The translations under genes were made by a program, and so were the position numbers. Under the pieces are notes generated by a model, which was given only the letters and a program-made list of their open reading frames with translations, searched no databases and was not told the DNA's origin. Below, in pieces: positions 2,593-45,747 of a DNA stretch of 64,000 nucleotides (position 1 is the stretch's first letter; the number at the start of each line of letters is the position of its first letter). Source of the DNA: Patescibacteria group bacterium (lineage in GTDB: Bacteria > Patescibacteriota > Doudnabacteria > UBA920); contig WARV01000002.1 of NCBI GenBank assembly GCA_013387205.1, positions 3,341 to 67,340 of the forward strand. The letters are read 5' to 3'.

Positions 2593-4341
2593 ATGAATAA
2601 TCCTGTAAAAACAAATGATTCCAAGAGTTTTGACCAGTTTTTGGTAGATAACGGTTTTGTCGCGCAGCAAATAATCCAGGAAGCCTTAGAACAGCAAAAG
2701 AAAAGCGGGCAATCCTTAGGGCAAGTTTTGATAAATAACAAGATTCTGGAAGAAGAAGATTTGACCAAAGCAAAGGCCGCGTTTTTTAATATTCCGTATG
2801 TGGATTTGAGGAAGATCCATGTTTCGCCCATGGTTTTGGCGTTGATACCGAAAGAGTCGATGAACTTTTACAATTTTGTCCCGTTCGACTTGAAAGACAA
2901 AACTTTGAAAGTCGCCATAACCGACCCGACTAACCTTTCCGCTTTGGAGGCGCTGGAATTTTTGGGCCAAAAACAAAACTTGCAAGTCCAGTTATACCTG
3001 GCTTCAGACACTTCGGTGGGGATTGTGGTCGGTAAAAAGGGCAACCTGAAAATGGTGGTCGGCGAAGCATTGAAGGATATCCAGACAAAAGAGGAAAAAG
3101 AGAAAAAGCCGGTCATTACCGAGCAGGAAACAAAGCCTGCGGTTTTGGAAGAAGCCCCGATAATCAAAATTGTGGACGTTATTTTAGCCAATGCAATTGA
3201 AGGCAATGCTTCCGATATCCATATTGAGCCTTCGGAAAAAGACGTCAGGGTAAGGTACCGCATTGACGGTATTTTGCATACGTCCTTAATGCTTCCGAAA
3301 AATATCCAAAGCGCCATTGTTACCAGAATAAAAATATTATCCAATTTGAAAATTGACGAATCCCGCCTTCCCCAGGACGGGCGTTTCCATGTAGAGGTAG
3401 GCAAAAAATCCGTTGACTTGCGCGTATCCATACTGCCTTTGATTTACGGGGAAAAAACCGTTATGCGTATTTTGGATAAGAGCGGCAGCGTGCCGACTTT
3501 GGAGCAGCTTGGCATAAGGGGCAGGGCTGCGACCTGGGTGAAAGAAAATATTAAAAAGACACACGGTATATTCCTTATTACCGGACCTACGGGAAGCGGA
3601 AAATCCACCACTTTGTATTCCATCTTGTCAATTTTGAACACCGCGACCGTTAACATTATTACCCTGGAAGACCCGGTGGAATATTTTATTGCAGGCGTGA
3701 ACCAAAGCCAGATTAACCCGGATATCGGCCTGACTTTCGCTTCGGGACTCAGGAGCATTTTGCGCCAGGACCCGAACATCGTCATGGTCGGTGAGGTTCG
3801 CGATAAGGAAACGGCGGAGATTGCCGTGCACGCCGCGTTGACCGGCCACTTGCTGTTTTCGACACTGCACACCAATAATGCCATTGGCGCCATGCCCCGC
3901 ATGATAGACATGGGCATTGAACCGTTCCTTTTAACCGCTTCAGTCAACGTGGTTATGGCCCAAAGGTTGGTCAGGAAAATTTGCCAGAACTGCAAAAAAG
4001 AAGTGCCTATCACCAAGGCAGTGGAGGATGAAATCAGGAAAAATTTGGTTGGAGTGCCTGAGGAGTATCTGGAAGGGGTTGACCAGAAAACAATTAAGAT
4101 TTATAAAGGCCAGGGTTGTGAGAAATGCGGGCACACGGGTTATGTCAGCAGGTTCGGAATTTTTGAGGTATTGCCTGTCACTACGCAAGTCCAGGATTTA
4201 ATTTTGACCAAAGCCTCAACCCATAAAGTTTATGAAGAAGCATCAAAGCTCGGTATGATTACCATGAAGCAGGACGGTATTGTCAAAGTCATCAGGGGAG
4301 AGACCACTATGGATGAAATTATCAGGGTAACAACAGAATAA
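2593..4341 (+). CDS. pilB: Type IV pilus assembly (extension) ATPase PilB/GspE
   Basis: Walker A GPTGSGKST; Asp/His boxes; tetracysteine motif CQNC...CEKCGHTGY; N-terminal GspE_N-like domain. Confidence 0.93.
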   Translation: MNNPVKTNDSKSFDQFLVDNGFVAQQIIQEALEQQKKSGQSLGQVLINNKILEEEDLTKAKAAFFNIPYVDLRKIHVSPMVLALIPKESMNFYNFVPFDLKDKTLKVAITDPTNLSALEALEFLGQKQNLQVQLYLASDTSVGIVVGKKGNLKMVVGEALKDIQTKEEKEKKPVITEQETKPAVLEEAPIIKIVDVILANAIEGNASDIHIEPSEKDVRVRYRIDGILHTSLMLPKNIQSAIVTRIKILSNLKIDESRLPQDGRFHVEVGKKSVDLRVSILPLIYGEKTVMRILDKSGSVPTLEQLGIRGRAATWVKENIKKTHGIFLITGPTGSGKSTTLYSILSILNTATVNIITLEDPVEYFIAGVNQSQINPDIGLTFASGLRSILRQDPNIVMVGEVRDKETAEIAVHAALTGHLLFSTLHTNNAIGAMPRMIDMGIEPFLLTASVNVVMAQRLVRKICQNCKKEVPITKAVEDEIRKNLVGVPEEYLEGVDQKTIKIYKGQGCEKCGHTGYVSRFGIFEVLPVTTQVQDLILTKASTHKVYEEASKLGMITMKQDGIVKVIRGETTMDEIIRVTTE

Positions 4342-4437
4342 AATTAATGACAAAAATTAAAAAAATAATAAAAATGACAAAAATATAATTGCATTTCACT
4401 TTTGTCATTTCCGTCGTTTTTGTCATTTTTGTTCATT
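4341..4437. repeat. Family-M dyad word-array repeat, copy 2, ends 6 nt before the ATG at 4444
   Basis: See 836-931. Confidence 0.7.
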
Positions 4438-4443
4438 TAACCT

Positions 4444-4872: not shown

Positions 4873-5023
4873 CATAATCCGAATTTACCCTGTTAAATGC
4901 TGCTTCGCAGCATTCCGACATCTCGGAATATTTAACAGGGTTAATCCGAATATTATCCAAATGACCCGAATAGGGAACCGTTTGGGGCATTCGGATAAGA
5001 ATTCGGGGCATTAGGATTATAAA
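4873..5023. repeat. Family-P dyad repeat (ATAATCCGAAT...CCAAATGACCCGAATA...GGGGCATTCGGATAA..AATTCGGGG.ATTAGGATTATA), copy 1 with an extra internal 70-bp palindromic insert; ends 4 nt before the pilT ATG
   Basis: ~85% identical copies at 23202-23276 and 34753-34846. Confidence 0.75.
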
Positions 5024-5027
5024 TTTT

Positions 5028-6098
5028 ATGTACAAAGCCAGTGAATTAGAGTTAAATAAGCTTTTATCCATTGTCATGGAACGGGACGCTTCTGACTTGC
5101 ATTTAATTGTCGGGGAGCCGCCGGTTATTAGGGTTGATACCCAGCTTATAAGGCTCGACAACTACCAGGTCCTTAGCAACGAAGGCATTGCCGATTTGCT
5201 TAATGTTTTGCTGTCTCCGGCGCAAAAGAGCTTATTTGAAAAACAAATGCATGTGGATTTTTCTTACGCTTTTAAGGACAATATCAGGTTTAGAGTCAAC
5301 GCTTACAGGCAAAAAGGGGTTTTAGGCATAGCAATGAGGATTATTCCTAACCGCATTAAAACTTTGGACGAGTTAAGTTTACCGCCAATCCTGAAAAAAT
5401 TCACGGAAAAGAAGCAGGGTTTGGTTTTGGTGGTGGGACCCACGGGGCACGGGAAATCTACGGCATTAGCGTCAATGGTTAACGAGATCAATAAAACCAG
5501 GAATGAACACATATTAACCATTGAAGACCCGATTGAATTCGTTTTTACTCCGGACCAGTCGATTATCAGCCAAAGGGAGATTTTGCTGGATACGCCGGCT
5601 TTTGCCGATGCGCTTAAGGCTGCTTTACGCGAAGATATAAACGTCGTGCTTGTCGGTGAAATGAGGGATTTGGAATCCGTTTCAGCAGCCCTAACTATTG
5701 CCGAAACCGGGCATTTGGTTTTCGGGACACTGCATACTAACGATGCGGCCCAGAGCATTGACCGTATGGTGGACGTCTTTCCTTCCAGCCAGCAGCCGCA
5801 GATCAGGAGCCAGCTGGCTAGTGTATTGGTTGGAGTGGTTTCGCTAAGGCTTTTGCCGAAGATCGGCGGCGGAAGAGTCCCGTCTTATGAGATTATGGTG
5901 AGCAATCATGCGATAAGGAACGTAATCAGGGATAATAAAGTTTACGAAATCCCGAATATAATCCATACCAATTTGGATGAGGGAATGATTCCGATGGATA
6001 AGACTCTTGCGTTATTGGTTAAACAGGGGGCGGTTGAATTTGAAGTTGCCCAAAATTTTGTTGTTGATAACGAATTCTTTTTGTCATTAATCTCATAA
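5028..6098 (+). CDS. pilT: Twitching-motility (retraction) ATPase PilT
   Basis: Walker A GPTGHGKST; HLVFGTLHTN motif; ~350 aa. Confidence 0.92.
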   Translation: MYKASELELNKLLSIVMERDASDLHLIVGEPPVIRVDTQLIRLDNYQVLSNEGIADLLNVLLSPAQKSLFEKQMHVDFSYAFKDNIRFRVNAYRQKGVLGIAMRIIPNRIKTLDELSLPPILKKFTEKKQGLVLVVGPTGHGKSTALASMVNEINKTRNEHILTIEDPIEFVFTPDQSIISQREILLDTPAFADALKAALREDINVVLVGEMRDLESVSAALTIAETGHLVFGTLHTNDAAQSIDRMVDVFPSSQQPQIRSQLASVLVGVVSLRLLPKIGGGRVPSYEIMVSNHAIRNVIRDNKVYEIPNIIHTNLDEGMIPMDKTLALLVKQGAVEFEVAQNFVVDNEFFLSLIS

Positions 6099-6099
6099 A

Positions 6100-6215
6100 T
6101 TAACTAATCTACGAATCCATACTAATAATAACCAATGACAACTAATCCTTACTAAGATAGCATTAGTTGTCATTGGCAATATTCGTTACATTAGTTGATT
6201 AGTTAATCAAATTCG
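6100..6215. repeat. Dyad word-array element (ACTAAT/ATTAGT words; AACCAATGACAACTAAT / ATTAGTTGTCATTGG arms) immediately upstream of pilC
   Basis: Direct reading; a similar ACTAAT array is at 38055-38165 upstream of pyk. Confidence 0.55.
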
Positions 6216-6218
6216 TAT

Positions 6219-7427
6219 ATGAAATTTTTTTACAACGCCAGGAATAAAGACGGGCAAACCAAGTCAGGTATGGTGGTAGCCCAAGACCAGGCTAGGGCTG
6301 AACAGCTTTTGGCTGAAAATGGCCTGGTTATTACCAGCCTGGAAGCCAGGGAAGACGGTATTTTTGATAGGCTGAATCCTTTCGGTAAATCCGTTAAAAA
6401 TAAGGAACTGGTAATGTTCTCCCGGCAGCTGGCAACTTTAATTTCTGCCAGGGTGCCGATTATCCAATCCTTGAGAATTTTGGAAGGCCAGGTGTCAAAC
6501 AAATACCTTGTTACCGTAGTCCGGGATATTATTGCTTCCATAGAGAATGGGGAAAACTTGTCCTTGGCCATGTCCAAGCACGAAAAGATTTTCGGGAACG
6601 TTTATACCAGCCTGGTCCGGTCAGGTGAAGCGTCGGGTACTTTGGATAAGGCTTTAGTTTATCTGGCTGACCAACTGGAAAAAGATTATGAGCTCAAATC
6701 TAAAGTAAAAAGCTCCATGACTTATCCATTGTTCGTTCTTGGTGCGTTGGGTATTGTCGGAATTTTAATGTTTAAATTCGTTCTGCCCAAATTGACATCG
6801 GTTCTTGAAGAGCAGGGAGGTAGCCTGCCGGCAGTTTCCGTGGCTTTAATTTCTTTTACCAAGTTTTTCGATAAATTTTGGTGGTTGGTGCTGCTATGCA
6901 TAGCGGGCCTGGTTTTGGCGGTAAAATTTTACATTTCGACTGAAATGGGCAGGAACCTGTGGGATCGCATGAAAATCAAACTGCCTATTATCGGGGATAT
7001 TTTTGTAAAAATTTATTTGGCCAGGTTTGCCAGGAATTTATCAACTCTGGTTAAAGGCGGAATTCCCATTATTAAATCCATGCAGATTGTCAGTGAAATT
7101 ATAAATAATACCATTTATAGGGATATTGTCTTAGGCGCTGTTGACAGTATTCAAGAAGGAAGAAGTATTAGCGATGGCTTGGCCGGCCATCCGGCAGAGT
7201 TTCCTCCAATTGTTACCCAAATGGTTAAGGTTGGCGAGCAGACCGCCCAGCTTGATGACATCTTAGGCAAATTAGCGGTATTTTACGAAAAAGAAGTTGA
7301 TACCAAAGTTAGCACCTTAACAACTTTGATGGAACCGGTTATTATGATAATTTTGGGGCTTGGTGTCGGAGTTTTGGTTGCCGGGGTGTTAATGCCTATT
7401 TATAACATGGCGAGCACGTCGGGATAA
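6219..7427 (+). CDS. pilC: Type IV pilus inner-membrane platform protein PilC/GspF
   Basis: Two GspF repeats; 3 TM segments; ~400 aa. Confidence 0.9.
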   Translation: MKFFYNARNKDGQTKSGMVVAQDQARAEQLLAENGLVITSLEAREDGIFDRLNPFGKSVKNKELVMFSRQLATLISARVPIIQSLRILEGQVSNKYLVTVVRDIIASIENGENLSLAMSKHEKIFGNVYTSLVRSGEASGTLDKALVYLADQLEKDYELKSKVKSSMTYPLFVLGALGIVGILMFKFVLPKLTSVLEEQGGSLPAVSVALISFTKFFDKFWWLVLLCIAGLVLAVKFYISTEMGRNLWDRMKIKLPIIGDIFVKIYLARFARNLSTLVKGGIPIIKSMQIVSEIINNTIYRDIVLGAVDSIQEGRSISDGLAGHPAEFPPIVTQMVKVGEQTAQLDDILGKLAVFYEKEVDTKVSTLTTLMEPVIMIILGLGVGVLVAGVLMPIYNMASTSG

Positions 7428-7528: not shown

Positions 7529-7599
7529 TAATATGAAATAATCAATTGGGAAGAAATATTGTAAATATTCCTTCCTTAATTGTTAAAAACAGGCAAATA

Positions 7600-8088
7600 A
7601 TGCCTGTCCCAAGATTGGGGGTGAAAAAATTGCGAAACAAAAACAAAGGTTTTACCTTAATTGAATTGTTGGTGGTTATTGCCATTATTGGTCTTTTGGC
7701 CTCTGTGGTTCTCCTTGCTCTTAACTCGGCTCGAGCCAAGTCCAGGGATGCTAAGAGACTGGCAGACGTAAGGCAATTAGCCTCTGCGTTTGAATTGTAT
7801 TTTAATGACAATAATTCTTATCCGACCGCAGCTGCTCAGAACCCAATTCCTCAAGCCGGTTTTGGTCAGCCAAATATAGTTCCTAACTATATTGGCATGA
7901 TCCCAACCGCTCCAGGACCGCAAGACGGCACTTGTACTCAAAACGGCCAGGGAGGTAATGGATATTATTGGGTGTTAAACAATGCTGCAAGTACCTCAAA
8001 TAGCTACACATTAACGTTCTGTTTGGGTGATAATACTGGCGGTTACGGAAAAGGCCCTCATACCTTAACTCCTGCCGGTATTCAATAG
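7600..8088 (+). CDS. pilA: Type IV major pilin (prepilin with class III signal ...KNKG|FTLIELLVV, C-terminal disulfide-loop cysteines). The track ORF starts at 7546; the ATG at 7600 is more likely
   Basis: G|FTLIE prepilin motif with E+5; hydrophobic alpha1; two Cys flanking a C-terminal loop; strong terminator right after. Confidence 0.8.
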   Translation: MPVPRLGVKKLRNKNKGFTLIELLVVIAIIGLLASVVLLALNSARAKSRDAKRLADVRQLASAFELYFNDNNSYPTAAAQNPIPQAGFGQPNIVPNYIGMIPTAPGPQDGTCTQNGQGGNGYYWVLNNAASTSNSYTLTFCLGDNTGGYGKGPHTLTPAGIQ

Positions 8089-8556: not shown

Positions 8557-10566
8557 ATGAATATACCAGAAAAATTTCGGCTGCCCTTTAGGGATGATAA
8601 GCCTTTTGGCGCATTAATTTTATTGTTTTTTGCCGTACCATTGCTGTTTTCTGTTATAACCTATGAAAATTTTGAAATTATTAAATACTCATTATGGCTG
8701 GGTTTTTTAGGGTTAACGCTTTTTCTATGGGTAAAAGAAAATTATTTACATAGTTCAGAAGGATCTAGCCAGCAAAAACCCGGACGTTTAATTAAGCTAA
8801 ACAAGCCTGCCTTTATACTTTTAGGGCTGTTTTTTCTTTTTGCGGTTATTAGCACGATATTTTCCGCTGACTTGCTAAACAGTTTAGTCGGTTTTTATTA
8901 TCGGTTTACCAACAGCCTTGTTTTTTACGGGTCGTGGGTTTTGCTGGTTGTTTTATTGGTTTTTATTTTAAACCGGCAAAAATTTGAGCTGCTGGCAAAG
9001 TTAGCGGTTTTTGATTCGTTATTAATATCTGTTGTCGGGATTTTCCAAAGTTTTGGCATCGGATACTATCAAGGTTCTGGTTCTGGCGGAATTATGATGA
9101 GGGCGCCCAGTCTTCTTGGCAACCCAAATTTTTCCACGTTATTTATTGTCGCAGCTTTGCCTTACGCCCTGTATTTTTTCTTAGGCAACAACAATTTAAA
9201 ATCAAAAATTTATTACGGCTGCACGATATTTTTTATAGTCTGGTCGCTGGCGATGATGTCAAGCAGGGGAGCCTGGCTGGGTTTTGCGGCTGCAATAGCA
9301 GTCTGGTTGGTAATATCTGCGGCTTACCGGTTAGGAAAAAAGTTTTGGCTGGCGCTGGTTTTACTGGGTGTTTCAGCGGTTATTACGGCAAATTTCTATT
9401 TTTTAATCAGGCCAAGCGATTCCGGGCAAGTCGTTGATTACACGGAGAGTAATGTGCAACTAAGGTTTTTTGTCTGGGACATCGCCAGACAAGGAATGCA
9501 AGTGCATCCGTGGACCGGTATAGGTTTGGGTAATTTTCATATATTATACTCACAGTTTCGAGACAAGCAACTGGCTAGCGAAGGAGTGTTTGACGATGCG
9601 CATAACTTATTTCTACAAATGGGGGCGACTGGCGGCCTGCCGATGGTTGCAAGTTTTTTAGCTTTAATTTTGGCGTCTTTTTTGCTGGGTTTGAAAAAAA
9701 TAGGCGAGGAAAAAGACGGCTTGGCTTTGGCAGGGATGTCTGGCTTATCCGCATTTGTTATAACAGCGGCTTTTACGCCGGTCAGTATCCCTTGCTACCT
9801 GCTTTTGGCCTTGATATTGGCAGGACTTGTGATGCCTTATAGTAAAGATTATTCCGTGCGTTTCCCTAAGGCCCTGGCTTTTGGAACAGGCCTTTTAGGA
9901 ATTTTTATGATTCTGGCAGGGGCTATGTTTTTCCTTTCTGAGCTGGTATTTTATTTCGGTGCAAAAGCTTATTTGCGCGGCGATTATCCCAAAGCATTAA
10001 GCTATAGCACTCTGGCCGCAAAATTAAATCCTACGGATCCGTTGTTTTATGTTTATCGCGCCGGCAGCGAGATTATGCTTAATAAAAATGATAAAATTAT
10101 AAGCGAAAGCATAAATAAAGTGGTTTCTTTGCATCCTAAAGAGAGCGGGAGGTTTGTTTCCGCTTCGAACTTGTATTTTATTTGGTACATGCATAGCCGT
10201 AATGGCGAACACCTTAATAGTGCCATCAGCGCTATGGCGGAAGCGCTTAAAAAGGATCCGTTGTATTCTGACAGGTACGGCAAAATGGCTTTGTATTATT
10301 ACCAGAAAGGTGATTTGGCTGCAGCCAGAATTTATAGTGAAATAAATTTAAAATATGACAACAAATTTTTACCCACCTGGATTTTACTCGCCAAAATTTA
10401 CCAGACGGAAGGAAAGAGAGACCAGGCAATTTATGCTTTGGAAAAAGCTTATAAGCTTCAGCCGACCTCGCCTCGCCTTAAGCTGGTATGGTATATGGCA
10501 AAACAAACACAGGACATTAAAAAGGTTCCCATAGATGTTGCTGTGGTACAAAACTCTTTAGAGTAA
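8557..10566 (+). CDS. O-antigen ligase (Wzy_C/WaaL)-like polytopic membrane protein with C-terminal TPR repeats; candidate pilin O-glycosyltransferase (TfpO/PglL-like)
   Basis: About 10-12 TM helices; SRGAWLG and HNLFLQMGATGG motifs typical of O-antigen ligase domain; TPR-like C-terminus; adjacent to pilin. Confidence 0.55.
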   Translation: MNIPEKFRLPFRDDKPFGALILLFFAVPLLFSVITYENFEIIKYSLWLGFLGLTLFLWVKENYLHSSEGSSQQKPGRLIKLNKPAFILLGLFFLFAVISTIFSADLLNSLVGFYYRFTNSLVFYGSWVLLVVLLVFILNRQKFELLAKLAVFDSLLISVVGIFQSFGIGYYQGSGSGGIMMRAPSLLGNPNFSTLFIVAALPYALYFFLGNNNLKSKIYYGCTIFFIVWSLAMMSSRGAWLGFAAAIAVWLVISAAYRLGKKFWLALVLLGVSAVITANFYFLIRPSDSGQVVDYTESNVQLRFFVWDIARQGMQVHPWTGIGLGNFHILYSQFRDKQLASEGVFDDAHNLFLQMGATGGLPMVASFLALILASFLLGLKKIGEEKDGLALAGMSGLSAFVITAAFTPVSIPCYLLLALILAGLVMPYSKDYSVRFPKALAFGTGLLGIFMILAGAMFFLSELVFYFGAKAYLRGDYPKALSYSTLAAKLNPTDPLFYVYRAGSEIMLNKNDKIISESINKVVSLHPKESGRFVSASNLYFIWYMHSRNGEHLNSAISAMAEALKKDPLYSDRYGKMALYYYQKGDLAAARIYSEINLKYDNKFLPTWILLAKIYQTEGKRDQAIYALEKAYKLQPTSPRLKLVWYMAKQTQDIKKVPIDVAVVQNSLE

Positions 10567-10576
10567 GCGGTGATTT

Positions 10577-11380
10577 ATGGAAAACATTCTCGCAATTTTT
10601 ATAATTTTCAGCTTTGGCTGCATAATTGGCAGTTTTTTAAACGTGGTCATACTTCGTTTGCCGCAGGAAAAAACATTGTCCGGGCGTTCGGCCTGCCCTT
10701 CTTGCGGCCATGTTTTGTCTCCTTTTGAATTGGTACCGTTATTCAGCTTCGTTTTTTTGCTGGGAAAGTGCAGAAATTGCAGGAAAAGAATTTCCTGGAG
10801 GTATTTTTTAATTGAACTGTTCACAGGACTTATGTTTTTGTCTGCATGGCTGATATTTGGGCATAATAATGTTTTGGAAGCCCTGTTTCTCATTAAATCC
10901 TTGTTGCTCATTTCCATATTTATTGTGGTTTTCATAATAGACTTTGAACATTACTTAATTTTGGATAAGGTGGTGTTTCCATCAATTATAATAATTACTG
11001 TTTTAAATTTTGCCATTTCCGCAATCCAGGGAAATCCGCTTAGTATAAATGCGATTTTTATAAGGGGCATTTTAGGGGCAATACTTGCCGCGCTGCCTTT
11101 TTTTGCCATTTGGTATTTTTCAAAAGGCTTATGGATGGGTTTTGGGGATGTTAAGTTGGCTTTATTGTTAGGTGCTGCGTTTGGTGGGGCCTTGGCGGCT
11201 GCCAATATAATGCTGGCAATATTTTTGGGAGGGCTGGTATCTATTTTGCTTATGGCCTTTAGGCATAAAACTTTAAATAGCAAGGTTCCTTTTGGAACAT
11301 TTTTAAGCATCGCCGGCATCGCCACTATCTTTTTCGGCGAAAGAATTTTGAATTGGTATTTAAGGCTTTTGGGTTTTTAG
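10577..11380 (+). CDS. pilD: Prepilin peptidase PilD (A24 family)
   Basis: N-terminal CPSCGH...CRNCRK zinc motif; polytopic; catalytic Asp-containing regions. Confidence 0.88.
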   Translation: MENILAIFIIFSFGCIIGSFLNVVILRLPQEKTLSGRSACPSCGHVLSPFELVPLFSFVFLLGKCRNCRKRISWRYFLIELFTGLMFLSAWLIFGHNNVLEALFLIKSLLLISIFIVVFIIDFEHYLILDKVVFPSIIIITVLNFAISAIQGNPLSINAIFIRGILGAILAALPFFAIWYFSKGLWMGFGDVKLALLLGAAFGGALAAANIMLAIFLGGLVSILLMAFRHKTLNSKVPFGTFLSIAGIATIFFGERILNWYLRLLGF

Positions 11381-11591: not shown

Positions 11592-12329
11592 ATGAGGCTG
11601 ATGAAACCAAAGATAAATCAAAAAAATAGTATTTACGGTAACGGCTTCACCCTCATTGAGATGCTGGTGGTTATTTCGATTATGGGCGTGATGCTTTCGG
11701 TATTTTTAATTGACTTAAACGGGCAAAAAACCAACCGAAACTTAAAAATTGCCCAAAACGAAATGGTGACAAATGTCCGAAAAATCCAAAGTTACACCCT
11801 GTCATCCAGGGGTTTTGGAGAGGCTAAGACCGTTTTGTATTATATTTTAAAATTTGACCTGTCACATCCGACCGAATATTACATACAGGCCATGTACCAG
11901 GACAGTTCAAATACCTGGAAGCTTATAAATGTGGAGACTGTCAAGTTGCCGGTGGGTATAAGGCTGGCTGCCAGCGGCCCTATTTCCATTACCCCTCCTC
12001 CCGGCCTGACCCTGTCGTCTTTAAGTCCGGATTCCTGCGCGCTGGTGGCGTTTAAAAACCCTTTTGCAAAAACTTACATTGAAGGCATAAATTATTCGGA
12101 TAGCGGAGATGGCAACGGGGACGGAAAAGGTGATTGTGAACTTTCCGCTTTTCCGATGATTTCGCCAAATGATAACCACAAAAAAATTATAAATTTTATC
12201 ACTAACACCAATAACTATCCGGTTAGCACAGATACCATAATTGTCATAAAACTCACTGATGAAAAAAACTCTGTTGCCCCCAAAACTATAACCATAAATG
12301 GTATTTCGGGATTAGTCAGTTTTAATTAA
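11592..12329 (+). CDS. Minor pilin/pseudopilin (long leader then G|FTLIEMLVV)
   Basis: Class III signal motif with E+5 and hydrophobic helix. Confidence 0.7.
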   Translation: MRLMKPKINQKNSIYGNGFTLIEMLVVISIMGVMLSVFLIDLNGQKTNRNLKIAQNEMVTNVRKIQSYTLSSRGFGEAKTVLYYILKFDLSHPTEYYIQAMYQDSSNTWKLINVETVKLPVGIRLAASGPISITPPPGLTLSSLSPDSCALVAFKNPFAKTYIEGINYSDSGDGNGDGKGDCELSAFPMISPNDNHKKIINFITNTNNYPVSTDTIIVIKLTDEKNSVAPKTITINGISGLVSFN

Positions 12330-12336
12330 CCAAATA

Positions 12337-13068
12337 ATGCACAAACAACTCGAAAACAGAAACGAAATACAAAAATTACCGGCATTTTTTCGAAATTCGG
12401 AGAAAGGGCAAACTTTAATCGAAACCATGGCCGCTGTTTTCATTTTGGTCATGGGTATTACTGCGGCGGTCGGGTTGGCTATTTACGCGTTTTCGACTTC
12501 AACAAACGTGACAAAGCAAATTATCGCAAACGGGCTGGCCAGGGAGGGTATTGAAGCCATTAAAACAATGAGAGATACCAACTGGCTTAAGGCCGCCTTA
12601 GCCACAAATTGCTATAATTACCAATTTGGTACCAGTGACGCTTCGTGTTATCCTGCCTGGCTGACTTCCAAATATGACATAGATCCGGGCGCAGGCTTAA
12701 ATGGTACGACCTTCATTTTGCAGCCTGACCCGACAAATCCTGATTTTTGGGTTCCTGCAAAATTAGCGGTAGGCGATTATAAGTTCGGCCTGAATATGAA
12801 TACAAACGTACAATCAGCAGGCTTTAAGGGTTTTTATTACCATCCAAGCCCTGCTGTCCAAGATGGTGACTCCGCTTATTACCGGAAAATCGTACTTAAA
12901 GAAGATGCCACGCAGCCATATAATACCAATGTCGGGCCGAAGCTTATTGTTAAGTCCCAAGTCTGGTGGACTGACAAGAAATGCCCGAGAGTGAAAGATT
13001 ACGACTTGGCTAATAACACTTGCAGGCTGGAGCTGACCATGTTTTTGACCAATTGGAAGAACTATTAA
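12337..13068 (+). CDS. Minor pilin/pseudopilin (G|QTLIETMAAV)
   Basis: Prepilin motif; hydrophobic alpha1. Confidence 0.65.
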   Translation: MHKQLENRNEIQKLPAFFRNSEKGQTLIETMAAVFILVMGITAAVGLAIYAFSTSTNVTKQIIANGLAREGIEAIKTMRDTNWLKAALATNCYNYQFGTSDASCYPAWLTSKYDIDPGAGLNGTTFILQPDPTNPDFWVPAKLAVGDYKFGLNMNTNVQSAGFKGFYYHPSPAVQDGDSAYYRKIVLKEDATQPYNTNVGPKLIVKSQVWWTDKKCPRVKDYDLANNTCRLELTMFLTNWKNY

Positions 13069-13112
13069 CCGCGGATTTTCGCGGATAGCGACGCAGATTT
13101 AACGCGGAATAT

Positions 13113-14243
13113 ATGACAGACTTATTATATAAAGAAATAACTTACGATATTAGAGGAGCTTGTTTTGACGTTTGGAAAGCCTTTGCAGGAGCTTTTAAAG
13201 AGAAGGTTGTGGAAAGGGCTATGGTTATAGAATTAAAAAAAAGAAATAGGAAAGTTGAAACACAAAAAAGAATTCCGATTTTTTACGGCAATGAAAATGT
13301 CGGTTATTATATACCCGATGCCATTATTGATGATTCGGTGTTGGTGGAAATAAAAACAAAAGAATTTATAACATCCCAGGATTACGATCAGTTTTGGAAA
13401 TATTTAAAAGGTTCAGAATATAAGGTGGGTTTATTAATAAATTTTGGACCAAAAGAATTGGAGTTCAAAAGAGTGGTTTACGATAATGCCAGAGAAAAGG
13501 TGTTCGCGTCGATTCCGCGTGGTAATCCGCGTCGTTCCGCGGAACAGGGTTTTACACTAATGGAAATTATCGTGGCTACCACGATATTTGCCATTGTAAG
13601 CACAGCCATGATGGCATTGTTTAATTACACGTTGATCATAAACAGGAAAAGCGATGCTTTGCGCCAGGCGACCCAGGGGATGAGGAATACTATTGAATTC
13701 CTGACTAAAGAGATTAGGAACGGCAAAATAGATTATGGGGTGGAAAAAGGGATTAAGCCGGAAAATCCGTCTGTCGGACCTTGCGCAATACCTGTGTTTA
13801 CCGGAACGCCGCCGGCTTCTTATACTGATGTGCAGCCTACTTACGTCAGCGAAAATAACAGGCTTGGGCTTACGAATTCCGAAGGTGATAGGGAGTGTAT
13901 ATATTTGGCTTCAGGCCCCGGAGCTGGAACTTATGTGGGAGCGGCATTTAAGAGTGATGCTATAAATAATCCAAATCCTTCATTGGTATTGGAAAAACTG
14001 AATTCCACTGACCAACCTAATACCATAAAAGAAGTTTTAAACCCCAAAAATGTCAGGATTGACCAGTTGAAGTTTTTTGTCCGGCCGCTTAAAGACCCCT
14101 ATACTTCTTTGGGGGGGTATGAAAAAGTACAGCCTTTCGTGACAATGAATATCGCTTTTGTCGCTAAGCTTCCTACGGGGGAAGAGGTTCCCATTTATTA
14201 CCAGACCACGGTCTCAACTAATAAATACGACATCCCGAATTAA
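13113..14243 (+). CDS. Chimeric ORF: N-terminal GxxExxY-family domain (PD-(D/E)xK-like, ~125 aa) fused in frame to a prepilin (..AEQG|FTLMEIIVA). The pilin part may start independently at the GTG near 13497
   Basis: N-terminal part matches the GxxExxY family (IPIFY, YIPDAIIDD, LVEIKT, GLLINFG); C-terminal part has the prepilin motif and hydrophobic helix. Confidence 0.6.
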   Translation: MTDLLYKEITYDIRGACFDVWKAFAGAFKEKVVERAMVIELKKRNRKVETQKRIPIFYGNENVGYYIPDAIIDDSVLVEIKTKEFITSQDYDQFWKYLKGSEYKVGLLINFGPKELEFKRVVYDNAREKVFASIPRGNPRRSAEQGFTLMEIIVATTIFAIVSTAMMALFNYTLIINRKSDALRQATQGMRNTIEFLTKEIRNGKIDYGVEKGIKPENPSVGPCAIPVFTGTPPASYTDVQPTYVSENNRLGLTNSEGDRECIYLASGPGAGTYVGAAFKSDAINNPNPSLVLEKLNSTDQPNTIKEVLNPKNVRIDQLKFFVRPLKDPYTSLGGYEKVQPFVTMNIAFVAKLPTGEEVPIYYQTTVSTNKYDIPN

Positions 14244-16071: not shown

Positions 16072-16162
16072 TATGTTTTTGATTTCTCCGTAAAAAATCT
16101 ACACCTCAATTTCCTATATTATACCACACTTCAGGTCAATTAGGTTTGTGGATAAACAAGAG

Positions 16163-16258
16163 AATTGACAAAAATGACAAAAATTAAAAGAATGACAAAA
16201 TTAATTTAAACCAGTAATTATGTCAATTTTGCTCAATTTTGTTCAATTATGTCAATAA
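16163..16258. repeat. Family-M dyad word-array repeat, copy 3, upstream of ligA
   Basis: See 836-931. Confidence 0.7.
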
Positions 16259-16285
16259 TAGTATAATTATAGTATAAGCAGGTAA

Positions 16286-19490: not shown

Positions 19491-22995
<3,505 letters not shown>

Positions 22996-23201
22996 TAGTA
23001 CTTAGGAATTAGTACTTAGTAGCAATACTAAGGACTATGAACTAAGAACTTAGTACTAGCATATAGGCTGCAGGTGTAAGCATAGTAATATGTTCAGCCG
23101 AGCAGTACTAATCAATCGAAAGTTTTAACTTATTTTATCTGCCAAAATTTTCTTTTGAAAATTTTTGTTGACTAGCAATTTGTGACTTTAACATAATCCG
23201 A

Positions 23202-23276
23202 ATCTACGGATTCATCCAAATAACCCGAATATAAATTTGGGGCATTCGGATAATAATTCGGGGAATTAGGATTATA
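23202..23276. repeat. Family-P dyad repeat, copy 2, in the 23S-5S spacer, ending 4 nt before a micro-ORF ATG
   Basis: See 4873-5023. Confidence 0.75.
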
Positions 23277-23280
23277 GATT

Positions 23281-23391
23281 ATGATAAAACACAACCTAAA
23301 AATTTTAGCAGCAGTATTGGTTATCTTAGCGGTTATTGGTTTGTTTTTTGTCCTTTCAAATCCTATTTTACAGCAAGTTAAAGCAAATTAA
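23281..23391 (+). CDS. Possible 36-aa hydrophobic micro-protein in the 23S-5S spacer (MIKHNLKILAAVLVILAVIGLFFVLSNPILQQVKAN)
   Basis: ATG directly after a family-P repeat, same arrangement as pilT and the EndoQ-like gene; single TM helix; no homology evidence. Confidence 0.2.
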   Translation: MIKHNLKILAAVLVILAVIGLFFVLSNPILQQVKAN

Positions 23392-31775: not shown

Positions 31776-31811
31776 CCGGACTGGAAACTCTATGTTCCAG
31801 TCCGGTTTTTT
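31776..31811 (+). terminator. Rho-independent terminator
   Basis: ccggactgg ...loop... ccagtccgg + TTTTTT. Confidence 0.75.
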
Positions 31812-31957
31812 ACTACGGATTATCTACAGATTCTACTGATTCCTACAGGTACGCCCGAGTGATATCTAAACAATTAATTACTAGATAACGCCCGAGAACA
31901 TCTGTAGGTATCTGTAGTATTCGGATACTTCTGTAGATCTGTAGTAATCCGTAGTTT
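31811..31957. repeat. MITE-like ~147-bp element bounded by ~20-bp terminal inverted repeats (tactacggattatctacagat / atctgtagtaatccgtagt), with internal CTACAGAT/ATCTGTAG word arrays and a duplicated ACGCCCGAG core; sits between convergent genes
   Basis: Read directly from the sequence. Confidence 0.6.
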
Positions 31958-38052: not shown

Positions 38053-38236
38053 TATGATACTAATATACTAATTGGAATACTAATAATACTAATTCTCTTA
38101 TAAGATTATTATTTAGATAATTTCGTATTATTAGTATCATTCGCATGTATTCGTATATTGGTATCACATAATTTGTTTTTAAACCAAATAAATGTTAAAA
38201 TAAACACAGAAACAGCATTAATCTCAAGGAAATTAG

Positions 38237-45610: not shown

Positions 45611-45747
45611 CGATTAAAATCGTCATAATGCGAATTACGCGAACAGGAACAATGCGAAAAACGCGAAATTTTTATCATATTTTCGCGAAGTTCGCATTTA
45701 GTTTCGCGTCATTCTCGTTATAATATTTAATTTTTTAAATTTAAACT

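Follow-up and report, generated by a model that had tools for sequence, protein, structure and literature searches.

A putatively selfish nuclease cassette with translatable inverted word arrays at the start of a type IV pilin gene in a Patescibacteria bacterium

Rickettsia palindromic elements (RPEs) are palindromic selfish DNA that resides in frame within unrelated genes, where it is translated and tolerated (PMC10969869). The intervening sequences (IVSs) of rRNA genes encode proteins of a four-helix-bundle family that also occurs in rRNA insertions of the candidate phyla radiation (CPR), from which no PDDEXK_3 open reading frame (ORF) has been reported (PMC11270868). The GxxExxY/PDDEXK_3 family itself is listed as being of unknown function (PMC3424549). 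Here, we describe a gene of this family that lies between two arrays of short inverted words and is fused in frame to a pilin, in a stretch of 64,000 nt from contig WARV01000002.1 of a Patescibacteria group bacterium (GCA_013387205.1), hereafter the window. This CPR-type segment has a GC content of 43%, and its nearest relatives are annotated as Candidatus Doudnabacteria. An initial annotation, made from the letters of the sequence, had proposed that the gene was inserted into the centre of a dyad already present in the pilin 5' region. The comparisons reported below favour, with a probability of roughly 60%, a selfish and fully translatable dyad cassette, the pilin copy of which would be tolerated because the prepilin peptidase removes it.

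The cassette covers 13069-13542 (~475 bp) and consists of a nuclease ORF that takes up the entire interior, preceded by four forward words and followed by four reverse ones. Together with the pilin to which it is joined, it comprises the following features:

13069..13109, + strand: left arm, four forward ACGC-N-GAT words (CCGCGGAT at 13069-13076, tCGCGGAT at 13079-13086, ACGCAGAT at 13091-13098 and ACGCGGAA at 13102-13109), with its onset 1 nt past the TAA of the upstream gene
13113..13502, + strand: GxxExxY / PD-(D/E)xK nuclease domain, aa 1-130 of the fusion
13503..13542, - strand: right arm, four reverse words (TTCGCGT at 13503-13509, ATTCCGCGT at 13512-13520, AATCCGCGT at 13524-13532 and TTCCGCGG at 13535-13542)
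13548..13565, + strand: prepilin cleavage/methylation motif GFTLME, cleaved after the glycine, with G146 as residue -1, F147 as +1 and E151 as +5
13551..14243, + strand: mature minor pseudopilin, with a beta domain preceded by a long N-terminal helix (aa 149-203)
13113..14243, + strand: whole fused ORF, 376 aa, open throughout

Forward CGCGGAW copies lie at 13070, 13080 and 13103, with the variant ACGCAGAT at 13091, and the CGC starts of the left arm are spaced 10-12-11. On the right, the reverse word cores occupy 13513-13519, 13525-13531 and 13535-13541, and TTCGCGT is an N-less variant. A repeat search recovered the inverted repeat as 13069-13106 / 13505-13542 (38 nt, 71% complementary). CGCGGAW occurs 28 times in the window, as against 14.1 +/- 3.5 in shuffled sequences (0 of 100 shuffles reached 28), and seven of these 28 copies fall at the nuclease-pilin locus. 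The word arrays seen in the initial annotation are highly significant, and only its count of about three forward words before the gene needs revision, to four per arm.

The N-terminal domain is indeed a bona fide GxxExxY / PD-(D/E)xK domain: aa 7-122 of the fusion match PF13366 (7.1e-28; 97.8 bits, cut-off 22) and TIGR04256 'GxxExxY' (1.4e-27; 96.3 bits, cut-off 35), and the catalytic P68-D69 ... E79-x-K81 residues are intact. No sequence match to a solved structure was found, the best hit (Cas1, E = 0.72) being noise. The prepilin motif (aa 142-166) is recognized by PF07963 (2.5e-6) and TIGR02532 (4.1e-5). An AlphaFold2 model contains two confident modules, the PD-(D/E)xK domain (aa 1-125) and the pilin (helix 149-203 and beta domain), and between them a linker (aa 126-146) with pLDDT <50 that ends exactly at the G146-F147 junction. 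This disordered 21-residue linker is the right arm, translated in frame as FASIPRGNPRRSAEQ, and forms the proximal part of the leader; 5 nt separate the end of the arm from the glycine codon (13548-13550). The leader of the fusion is 146 aa in length, including the folded domain, compared with 3-48 aa in insert-free orthologues. Scanning for a promoter, terminator or Shine-Dalgarno (SD) sequence belonging to the nuclease ORF itself gave background levels, and the window holds neither a second GxxExxY gene nor a four-helix-bundle gene.

Roughly 190 Doudnabacteria-type pilins are orthologous to the window pseudopilin, most of them without the insert. Eight out of ~120 orthologues contain the fusion; when a single genome per species was scanned without regard to reading frame, 3 of 41 orthologous pilin loci proved to be occupied (L011, L013 and L022). 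That the gene is an insert, as had been suggested, is supported both by these empty loci and by the nuclease phylogeny, which disagrees with that of the host genes. On a neighbour-joining (NJ) tree of flanking genes the occupied loci are scattered, L004 being the sister of the empty locus L006. The cassettes of L065 and L011 are 87% identical and their pilins 48%; those of the window and L001 are 46% identical and their pilins 62%. Across the comparisons, cassette and host identity give a Spearman rho of -0.25. Occupancy of the pilin site is patchy and does not track host phylogeny.

A CGCNGAT dyad was absent from all 37 compared orthologous loci that lack the nuclease domain, and the idea of a dyad already present at the pilin site was rejected on this ground. 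The spacers at these loci measure 19-90 nt (28 loci) or 124-230 nt (nine loci), and many of the loci encode ordinary short leaders, for example MNKELGIKNKKQS directly before GFTLME. Nor does the cassette split the pilin 5' region, as had been envisaged; at occupied loci the whole 20-90-nt spacer, ribosome-binding site, ATG and leader are replaced, with several junction types and with zero to three codons left between the last word and the glycine codon. The only nuclease-free orthologous locus with a CGCNGAT word array is L030, a decayed copy comprising a four-word left arm, the ATG and 14 codons of the nuclease, and two reverse words in frame with GFTLME; here, the nuclease ATG is the sole start of the pilin. 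About 15% of cassettes lie in pilus clusters. Enrichment beside pilins relative to other ORFs in the same flanks gave p = 0.33, a control that is invalid because the flanks are themselves pilus clusters.

All 13 cassettes that abut a prepilin glycine codon are in frame and stop-free. These are the eight occupied orthologous loci together with L062, L076, L112, L113 and L114, which involve unrelated prepilins; along with the single ORF at 13113-14243, they bear out the in-frame fusion described in the initial annotation as a real translation unit. By comparison, 58 of 58 free-standing cassettes reach a stop within 19 codons past the domain. In four further loci (L093, L098, L111 and L123), the downstream pilin has its own SD sequence, ATG and leader, and the cassette is out of frame or separated from it by a stop.

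Scanning metagenomes with a profile of the domain yielded 80 loci (48-73% identity), 78 of which had both flanks available. Inverted word arrays flank the GxxExxY genes: at 64 of the 78 loci, at least two forward words lie upstream of the ORF and at least two reverse words downstream. The arms carry on average 3.4 (forward, upstream) and 3.6 (reverse, downstream) words, as opposed to 0.4-0.5 in the wrong orientation. An arm normally has exactly four words with mirror-symmetric spacing of 10-12-10, 11-12-11 or 12-13-12, and its terminus belongs to one of two classes, CCGCnGAT...ATCnGCGG (that of the window) or RTAGAAGCnGAT...ATCnGCTTCTAY. Word variants are common to both arms of one locus and differ between loci (ACGCTGAT/ATCAGCGT, ACGCGGAT/ATCCGCGT, ACGCCAT/ATGGCGT, ACGCAAAT/ATTTGCGT and TGCTGAT/ATCAGCA), and as a result arm complementarity is higher within loci (33.8) than between loci (23.2) or after shuffling (13.9; p = 5e-15). 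The spacing class of the arms agrees with the protein phylogeny in 38 of 44 cases.

In the 645 kb examined, word arrays were found almost exclusively at GxxExxY genes or as dyads without an ORF, the exceptions being two stray three-word runs (L026 and L057), and the distance from forward to reverse arm fell into two ranges, 0-13 nt and 392-683 nt (nearly all of the latter 392-502). Translated reverse words, read as ...KSA, ...YQR or ...SASLSA, form the C-terminus of most of 120 stand-alone CPR homologues. This kind of cassette is widespread among CPR bacteria. The core AC[GA]C-N-GA also occurs beside GxxExxY genes outside the CPR, in Bacteroides, Bernardetia, Treponema and Gemmatirosa: Bacteroides finegoldii has three copies each of CACAGAGGA and CTCTGTG, Bernardetia a similar pair, Treponema one word per side, and Gemmatirosa a 3+3 CGCGGAT dyad. 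Three plasmid loci (Fusobacteria, Persicobacter and Prevotella) showed no clear inverted words, and no relatives were found in viral contigs. Between species, the cassette is the best-conserved DNA block (75-79%). Arms and ORF co-evolve as a unit.

The same cassette is not confined to pilin genes. A search with the whole fusion against 1.84 billion representative proteins returned 5192 matches at E <= 1e-3, including pilin-only ones. Host-gene classes were counted among the domain-bearing proteins in the top 150 matches:

stand-alone proteins: 32
N-terminal fusions to diverse prepilins: 7 (P0241, P0247, P0256, P0257, P0265, P0273 and P0283)
other N-terminal fusions: 16 (P0266, P0269, P0313, P0344 and P0347 among them), about half then continuing with signal-peptide or transmembrane (TM) segments
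tandem double domains: 11
internal in-frame insertions: 29 (RecG, LepA, GatB, AsnB, GT2, GT4-like, RtcB-like and DHFR-like hosts)
host N-terminal fragment plus cassette: 6

Internal cassettes are found in essential housekeeping proteins. Each recurrent host is entered at one position, in RecG (seven or eight representatives; P0299, P0303, P0308, P0311 and P0333), LepA (seven; P0291, P0301 and others) and GatB (two; P0280 and P0319); AsnB (P0294) and leucyl-tRNA synthetase (P0297) provide further insert-bearing examples. The RecG insert always lies between DEQHRFGV.QR and PH.LSMTATPIPR (motifs II and III), and that of LepA, in the G domain, always between ITIK..PVRM and EYILNLIDTPGH. All internal inserts are flanked by translated words, on the left ..TQIDAD.. 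or ..TNAE.. and on the right ..RxSA..RESA... At the DNA level, one recG copy was checked (L151, 1480-2100): its left arm reads CCGCGGAC, ACGCAGAC, ACGCAGAC, ACGCGGAA with 10-12-10 spacing, followed by an ORF without an ATG and then by four reverse words, all in frame. The insert-free state of recG is a short protein loop with no dyad. Pfam finds only PDDEXK_3 between the host domains of internal inserts, and no Hint or other splicing domain. Catalytic residues are conserved in all fused copies and are kept in the inserted copies that were inspected. Because the arms go wherever the ORF goes, even to the interior of recG, they are the ends of the cassette.

The metagenome set adds 12 N-terminal fusions and four internal cassettes, and 11 of the 12 fusions join prepilins, signal-peptide proteins or a TM protein. 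Cassettes that stand alone between genes start at an ATG of their own and terminate within the right arm. There are three settings: stand-alone, fused in frame to the N-terminus of proteins in which this end is removable or cytoplasmic (prepilins and signal-peptide proteins), and internal, in frame, at fixed loops (glycosyltransferases included). Strict site-specific homing was rejected because the nuclease domains are not grouped according to host gene: only 15 of 35 have their nearest relative in a host gene of the same class. Copies from lepA and gatB share 78% identity, which argues against homing specific to a host site and for recognition of shared ends.

Several observations touch on these insertion sites. 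In L079, L095, L104 and L108, which represent one secreted-protein family, the n-region of the signal peptide is made from the right arm of the cassette (..RKSALLSAFIGFY..A-x-A/QQ); such fusions parallel the prepilin case, the releasing enzyme likely being signal peptidase. The cassettes of L069 and L077, at orthologous sites, end right before the start of a class I aminoacyl-tRNA synthetase with a MetRS-like N-terminus (..YITTxxPYVN), and that of L126 overlaps it; the synthetase start is another recurrent insertion site. The partial leucyl-tRNA synthetase with a cassette (P0297) has a NUDIX domain (aa 301-419) inserted after its editing domain. Tandem GxxExxY proteins of ~250-277 aa (P0298, P0304, P0310, P0318, P0341, P0342, P0358, P0359, P0362, P0366 and P0377) may be tandem or nested cassettes that are read through.

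Peptides derived from palindromes occur in frame in unrelated CPR proteins, at ~aa 560 of P0291 (VSAKGGSASGGKETL) and in P0294 (ARGGSASGGKNRL), and as PPRADLPPAD / PEADPPLAE in the pilin leaders of L015 and P0013; GGSASGGK is the peptide encoded by GGCGGATCCGCC-like DNA. A 'GFTQHHF' / GGTTTTACCCAGCACC motif stands upstream of true prepilin sites in the spacers of L026 and L029 and in the leaders of P0048, P0089, P0091, P0120 and P0125, and has the look of a prepilin start that was duplicated or has degenerated, or else of a further repeat family.

Near the resident cassettes of L097, L115, L118 and L124 there are dyads without an ORF that share their words, termini and spacing and have arms 0-13 nt apart. 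These cognate dyads, found in 4 of 80 flanks, substantiate the link between such ORFs and dyads that the initial annotation had drawn. One related dyad is present in the window (45625-45725), and its word ACGCGAA is the N-less variant of the innermost word in the right arm of the cassette; this dyad may be a non-autonomous relative of the cassette. More generally, about nine ORF-less dyads of ~4+4 tandem words occupy nearly every intergenic spacer of the window longer than ~80 nt:

833-930: ORF-less dyad
4342-4443: ORF-less dyad
4873-5027: ORF-less dyad
6099-6218: ORF-less dyad
16160-16262: ORF-less dyad
23190-23285: ORF-less dyad
31808-31956: ORF-less dyad
38053-38170: ORF-less dyad
45625-45725: ORF-less dyad, 4+4 ACGCGAA / TTCGCG words, hairpin z = -7.1

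Three of them are located within the pilB-pilT-pilC operon, and one separates the 23S rRNA gene from the 5S rRNA gene. All fold as hairpins (z -3.5 to -8.1). Close arms, reported in the initial annotation with ~10-20 bp between them, are a real feature of the window, but the gaps range over 1-71 nt and the words are different ones, belonging to the families TGACAAAA (arrays of three), ATCCGAAT (two), CTAC-N-GAT, ACGCGAA, TAACTAAT and ATACTAAT.

A second kind of ORF is found in the same architecture. In L146 (1050-1610; ORMF010320321.1), the pilin site holds a four-helix-bundle gene (TIGR02436, 4.7e-23; PF05635) with its own 4+4 AATTGTT/AACAATT dyad, nested in CGCNGAT arms. The pilin leader is encoded by the outer reverse CGCNGAT words, with the start codon of the pilin falling in the inner right arm; of the outer forward words, a single one is left. 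At L076, L129, L115 and L029 there are further cassettes, or remnants of them, that have a four-helix-bundle gene and word arms of their own. With regard to the rRNA genes of the window, the 23S rRNA gene (19494-23131) is 3638 nt long, ~700 nt more than the 2925 nt of the Rfam bacterial large-subunit model, and its longest ORF, of 108 aa, is antisense; the excess looks like one or more ORF-less insertions similar to those reported for CPR rRNA genes.

What the arms are recognized by can be addressed from their variation. Spacer complementarity within a locus is 0.43-0.47, compared with 0.46 when permuted between loci; at the central N of ACGC-N-GAT, 35-44% of mirror pairs do not match, which is no improvement on non-mirror pairs; and there is no G-U asymmetry. 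A selected, continuous RNA or DNA stem was therefore rejected as the main constraint, although the arms can still pair. Taken with the fixed number of words, their 10-12-nt period and the core conserved across phyla, these three results point to a protein that recognizes the words, and the most economical candidate would be the cassette's own nuclease.

According to the reading that we favour, translation of the pilin would begin at the nuclease ATG and give a precursor of 376 aa, whose nuclease domain, at the N-terminus, would be kept in the cytoplasm while the pilin helix enters the membrane. The N-terminus of a prepilin is cytoplasmic in type IV pilin topology, and a folded N-terminal domain would therefore be topologically compatible. 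The PilD of the same operon would then cut between G146 and F147, yielding a normal pseudopilin and a 146-aa nuclease; since cleavage would free a normal pseudopilin, the insertion would be phenotypically silent, in the manner of an intein, by way of a host protease. The nuclease is envisaged to recognize the word arrays at its own ends and to make the breaks that start movement, which host recombination would complete, and only copies in spacers or in permissive in-frame positions would survive. The type IV pilus cluster in which this would take place is complete, and its genes are:

2593-4341: PilB
5028-6098: PilT
6219-7427: PilC
7546-8088: pilin
8557-10566: Wzy/TPR protein, between the pilin and PilD
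10577..11380, + strand: prepilin peptidase PilD (A24; PF06750 2.5e-30, PF01478 2.1e-10), in an operon shared with the fusion
11592-12329: pseudopilin, upstream of the PilV-like gene
12337..13068, + strand: PilV-like pseudopilin, the TAA stop of which (13066-13068) abuts the left arm

The synteny of PilD with the pilin locus is repeated in L001, L003 and L004.

A number of points weigh against this reading. Mobility of the cassette would follow from comparison only: direct repeats in the flanks are at chance for k = 1-4 across 37 elements of both terminus classes, giving no sign of a target-site duplication (TSD); no near-identical copies of the cassette were found at different sites; and no recent transfer was caught, the best interspecies cassette DNA identity being the 75-79% given above. 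The host tree is an NJ tree without support values. A 125-aa PD-(D/E)xK domain alone cannot perform strand transfer, and to the best of our knowledge there is no precedent for PilD cleaving off a folded leader of 146 aa. The presence of four-helix-bundle genes in analogous dyads with other words implies that the dyad architecture needs no nuclease. Furthermore, the lepA copy L153 (860-900) has an in-frame TAG exactly at the junction of the right arm and LepA (..VCDQV, stop, NDEYILNLIDTPGH), which could be due to an error in sequencing, could be a site of read-through, or could mean that the gene is split or a pseudogene. Finally, the arms can pair in RNA, and the pilin of the window has candidate internal start codons; each of these leads to an alternative.

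In the minimum free energy (MFE) RNA fold of 13060-13560, both arms are joined through all four word pairs (z = -3.9). The cassette could accordingly be an IVS-like element that acts in RNA: the arms would pair in the transcript to form a long, interrupted stem from which the ORF is looped out, and the stem would be cut, either by RNase III or by the encoded nuclease in the role of an RNase, as happens to 23S rRNA IVSs and Correia elements; the outcome would be release or regulation of the nuclease mRNA or, with a ligase, splicing of the cassette out of host mRNAs. The hairpins of the ORF-less dyads (z down to -8.1), the mirror-symmetric spacing with words in register, and the junction stop of the lepA copy all agree with this view, as do the cleavage of Correia terminal inverted repeat (TIR) stems by RNase III (PMC10969869) and the rRNA-IVS four-helix-bundle family, found with its own dyad at the pilin site of L146 and in CPR rRNA insertions (PMC11270868). 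We nevertheless consider it unlikely, given spacers without locus-specific complementarity, the frequent mismatch of the central base and the lack of G-U asymmetry. Moreover, fused and internal cassettes are in frame and stop-free for >190 codons, whereas free ones stop within 19, and such selection would be pointless if the RNA were excised; a cut in the stem would also detach the reading frame of the pilin from the one start codon that is conserved. The mechanism of the initial annotation, homing into dyads, makes the ORF-less dyads primary: the nuclease would bind the 4+4 words of an empty dyad and cut it in the middle, and the ORF would be installed between the arms when the break is repaired with an occupied copy as template. 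This would account for the dyads near cassettes at four loci and for the related one at 45625-45725, for an ORF that fills the centre exactly with no non-coding sequence, for a word core conserved across phyla along with the protein family, and for the nesting of one cassette within the arms of another in L146. We judge it quite improbable, however, because neither the 37 nuclease-free pilin loci nor the insert-free recG loop contains a dyad, and arms and ORF must therefore have arrived at these sites together. The single outer forward word kept in L146 does not fit a clean central insertion, and the ORF-less dyads can equally be explained as deletion derivatives, decay being evident in L030.

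Two further explanations concern the fusion rather than the cassette. Nuclease and pilin could be two co-transcribed genes, the missing stop being incidental and the pilin started at an internal GTG, as the initial annotation allowed for a codon near 13497. Such a restart is possible in the window, where GTG 13473 has a GGAG 9 nt upstream and GTG 13500 is another in-frame candidate, without a good SD sequence; L013 has a GTG with an upstream GGAG like that of the window, and L001 an ATG with GGAGG at -78. As a general solution internal restart fails, because L003, L011 and L022 lack any in-frame start with an SD-like sequence before the glycine codon (L003 has none within ~100 nt, and all that L011 and L022 offer are TTG/GTG codons within the domain); L004 offers only a TTG without an SD sequence. 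The frame is kept in 13 of 13 abutting cassettes despite differing linker lengths, the L030 remnant retains the nuclease ATG as its sole start, and where the pilin does have its own SD sequence and ATG the frame is lost or a stop intervenes. We thus assign this explanation a low probability. That the fusion has been domesticated, with the nuclease working in the pilus or competence machinery, for instance in DNA processing at the cytoplasmic face, seems barely tenable. Type IV pili of the CPR are generally tied to DNA uptake, and the conserved catalytic residues of all fused copies and the share of cassettes in pilus clusters would be in keeping with such a role; yet only some 8 of 120 orthologous pilins, or 3 of 41 species representatives, carry the domain, recG, lepA, gatB, asnB and glycosyltransferase genes, as well as arbitrary intergenic sites, harbour the same cassette with its arms, cassette and host trees disagree, and decayed copies exist.

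If the selfish, translatable cassette is the correct reading, parasitic genes would have, in addition to introns and inteins, a third means of residing silently in a coding sequence. It would also explain odd CPR annotations (RecG+nuclease, LepA+nuclease and nuclease+pilin) and the unusual tails, derived from repeats, at the N- and C-termini of many small proteins, and prepilin peptidase would be predicted to process a leader five times longer than any known. The GxxExxY/PDDEXK_3 family, which is a large one, gains a genetic anatomy, with defined ends, 4+4 words and three modes of residence, and in the ACGC-N-GAT word a testable candidate substrate; a first handle on the abundant intergenic dyad arrays of CPR genomes is provided as well. 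One may tentatively go further, with slightly more doubt than conviction, and propose an undescribed selfish class: a nuclease gene with translatable terminal word arrays that resides in coding sequence without splicing machinery, by either of two routes (a tolerated enzyme loop, or an N-terminal add-on cut off by leader peptidases), with the ORF-less CPR dyads as non-autonomous relatives and the four-helix-bundle cassettes as a sister class. No published description of the cassette was found in the literature searched on GxxExxY/PDDEXK_3, on repetitive extragenic palindromic (REP) sequences and transposable elements of the miniature inverted-repeat type (MITEs) of the CPR, or on IVS proteins.

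Each of the known families has a defining feature that the cassette lacks, there being no Hint domain, HUH transposase, TSD or rRNA location. Like insertion sequences and MITEs, it has terminal inverted repeats with defined ends, but it makes no TSD, and its sole ORF encodes a 125-aa PD-(D/E)xK protein instead of a DDE, HUH, serine or tyrosine recombinase. Site-specific homing endonuclease genes differ in being tied to one target site, which the nuclease lineages described here are not (15/35). The window fusion shares with type IV prepilins the G at -1, F at +1 and E at +5, the basic proximal leader and a PilD in the operon. To the best of our knowledge, known prepilin leaders are unstructured and of ~5-30 residues, whereas the window leader has 146 residues and contains a folded enzyme. 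Similar to the IVSs of 23S/16S rRNA (PF05635), the cassette is a small ORF enclosed by inverted repeats able to form a long stem, and the IVS ORF family occupies the same pilin site in L146 with a 4+4 dyad of its own; in the window, however, the ORF is a nuclease, the host is a pilus mRNA operon, and the arms are translated. REPIN/RAYT systems likewise pair a small nuclease-type gene with flanking inverted short repeats that also occur as ORF-less hairpin pairs in intergenic DNA (PMC3116915, PMC3337134); for the cassette, cognate pairs of this kind number 4 in 80 flanks, plus one related dyad in the window. RAYTs are HUH/Y1 transposases, their REP is a palindromic unit of 20-35 nt, and they are not inserted in frame in genes, in contrast to a PD-(D/E)xK cassette with arms of four tandem 8-mers.

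RPEs and intragenic MITEs are, like the cassette, translated in-frame inverted-repeat inserts that are also found between genes (PMC10969869); RPEs are ~150 bp in length and have neither an enzyme nor periodic word arrays, while the cassette carries a folded nuclease, and the ORF-less dyads may be its RPE-like form. Inteins with homing endonucleases differ from it in their Hint/splicing domain and Cys/Ser...His-Asn junctions, and in a LAGLIDADG or HNH nuclease where the cassette has a PD-(D/E)xK domain of 125 aa. The cassette is bounded by inverted 8-mer arrays, and near-identical nuclease domains recur in different host genes; its internal copies apparently stay in the host protein, and its pilin copy is proposed to be removed by a host peptidase. 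What the two have in common is a nuclease inserted in frame in housekeeping genes (RecG, the G domain of LepA, and GatB), the same site in divergent hosts, a patchy distribution, expression only within the host protein and, if the proposal for the pilin copy is correct, removal after translation.

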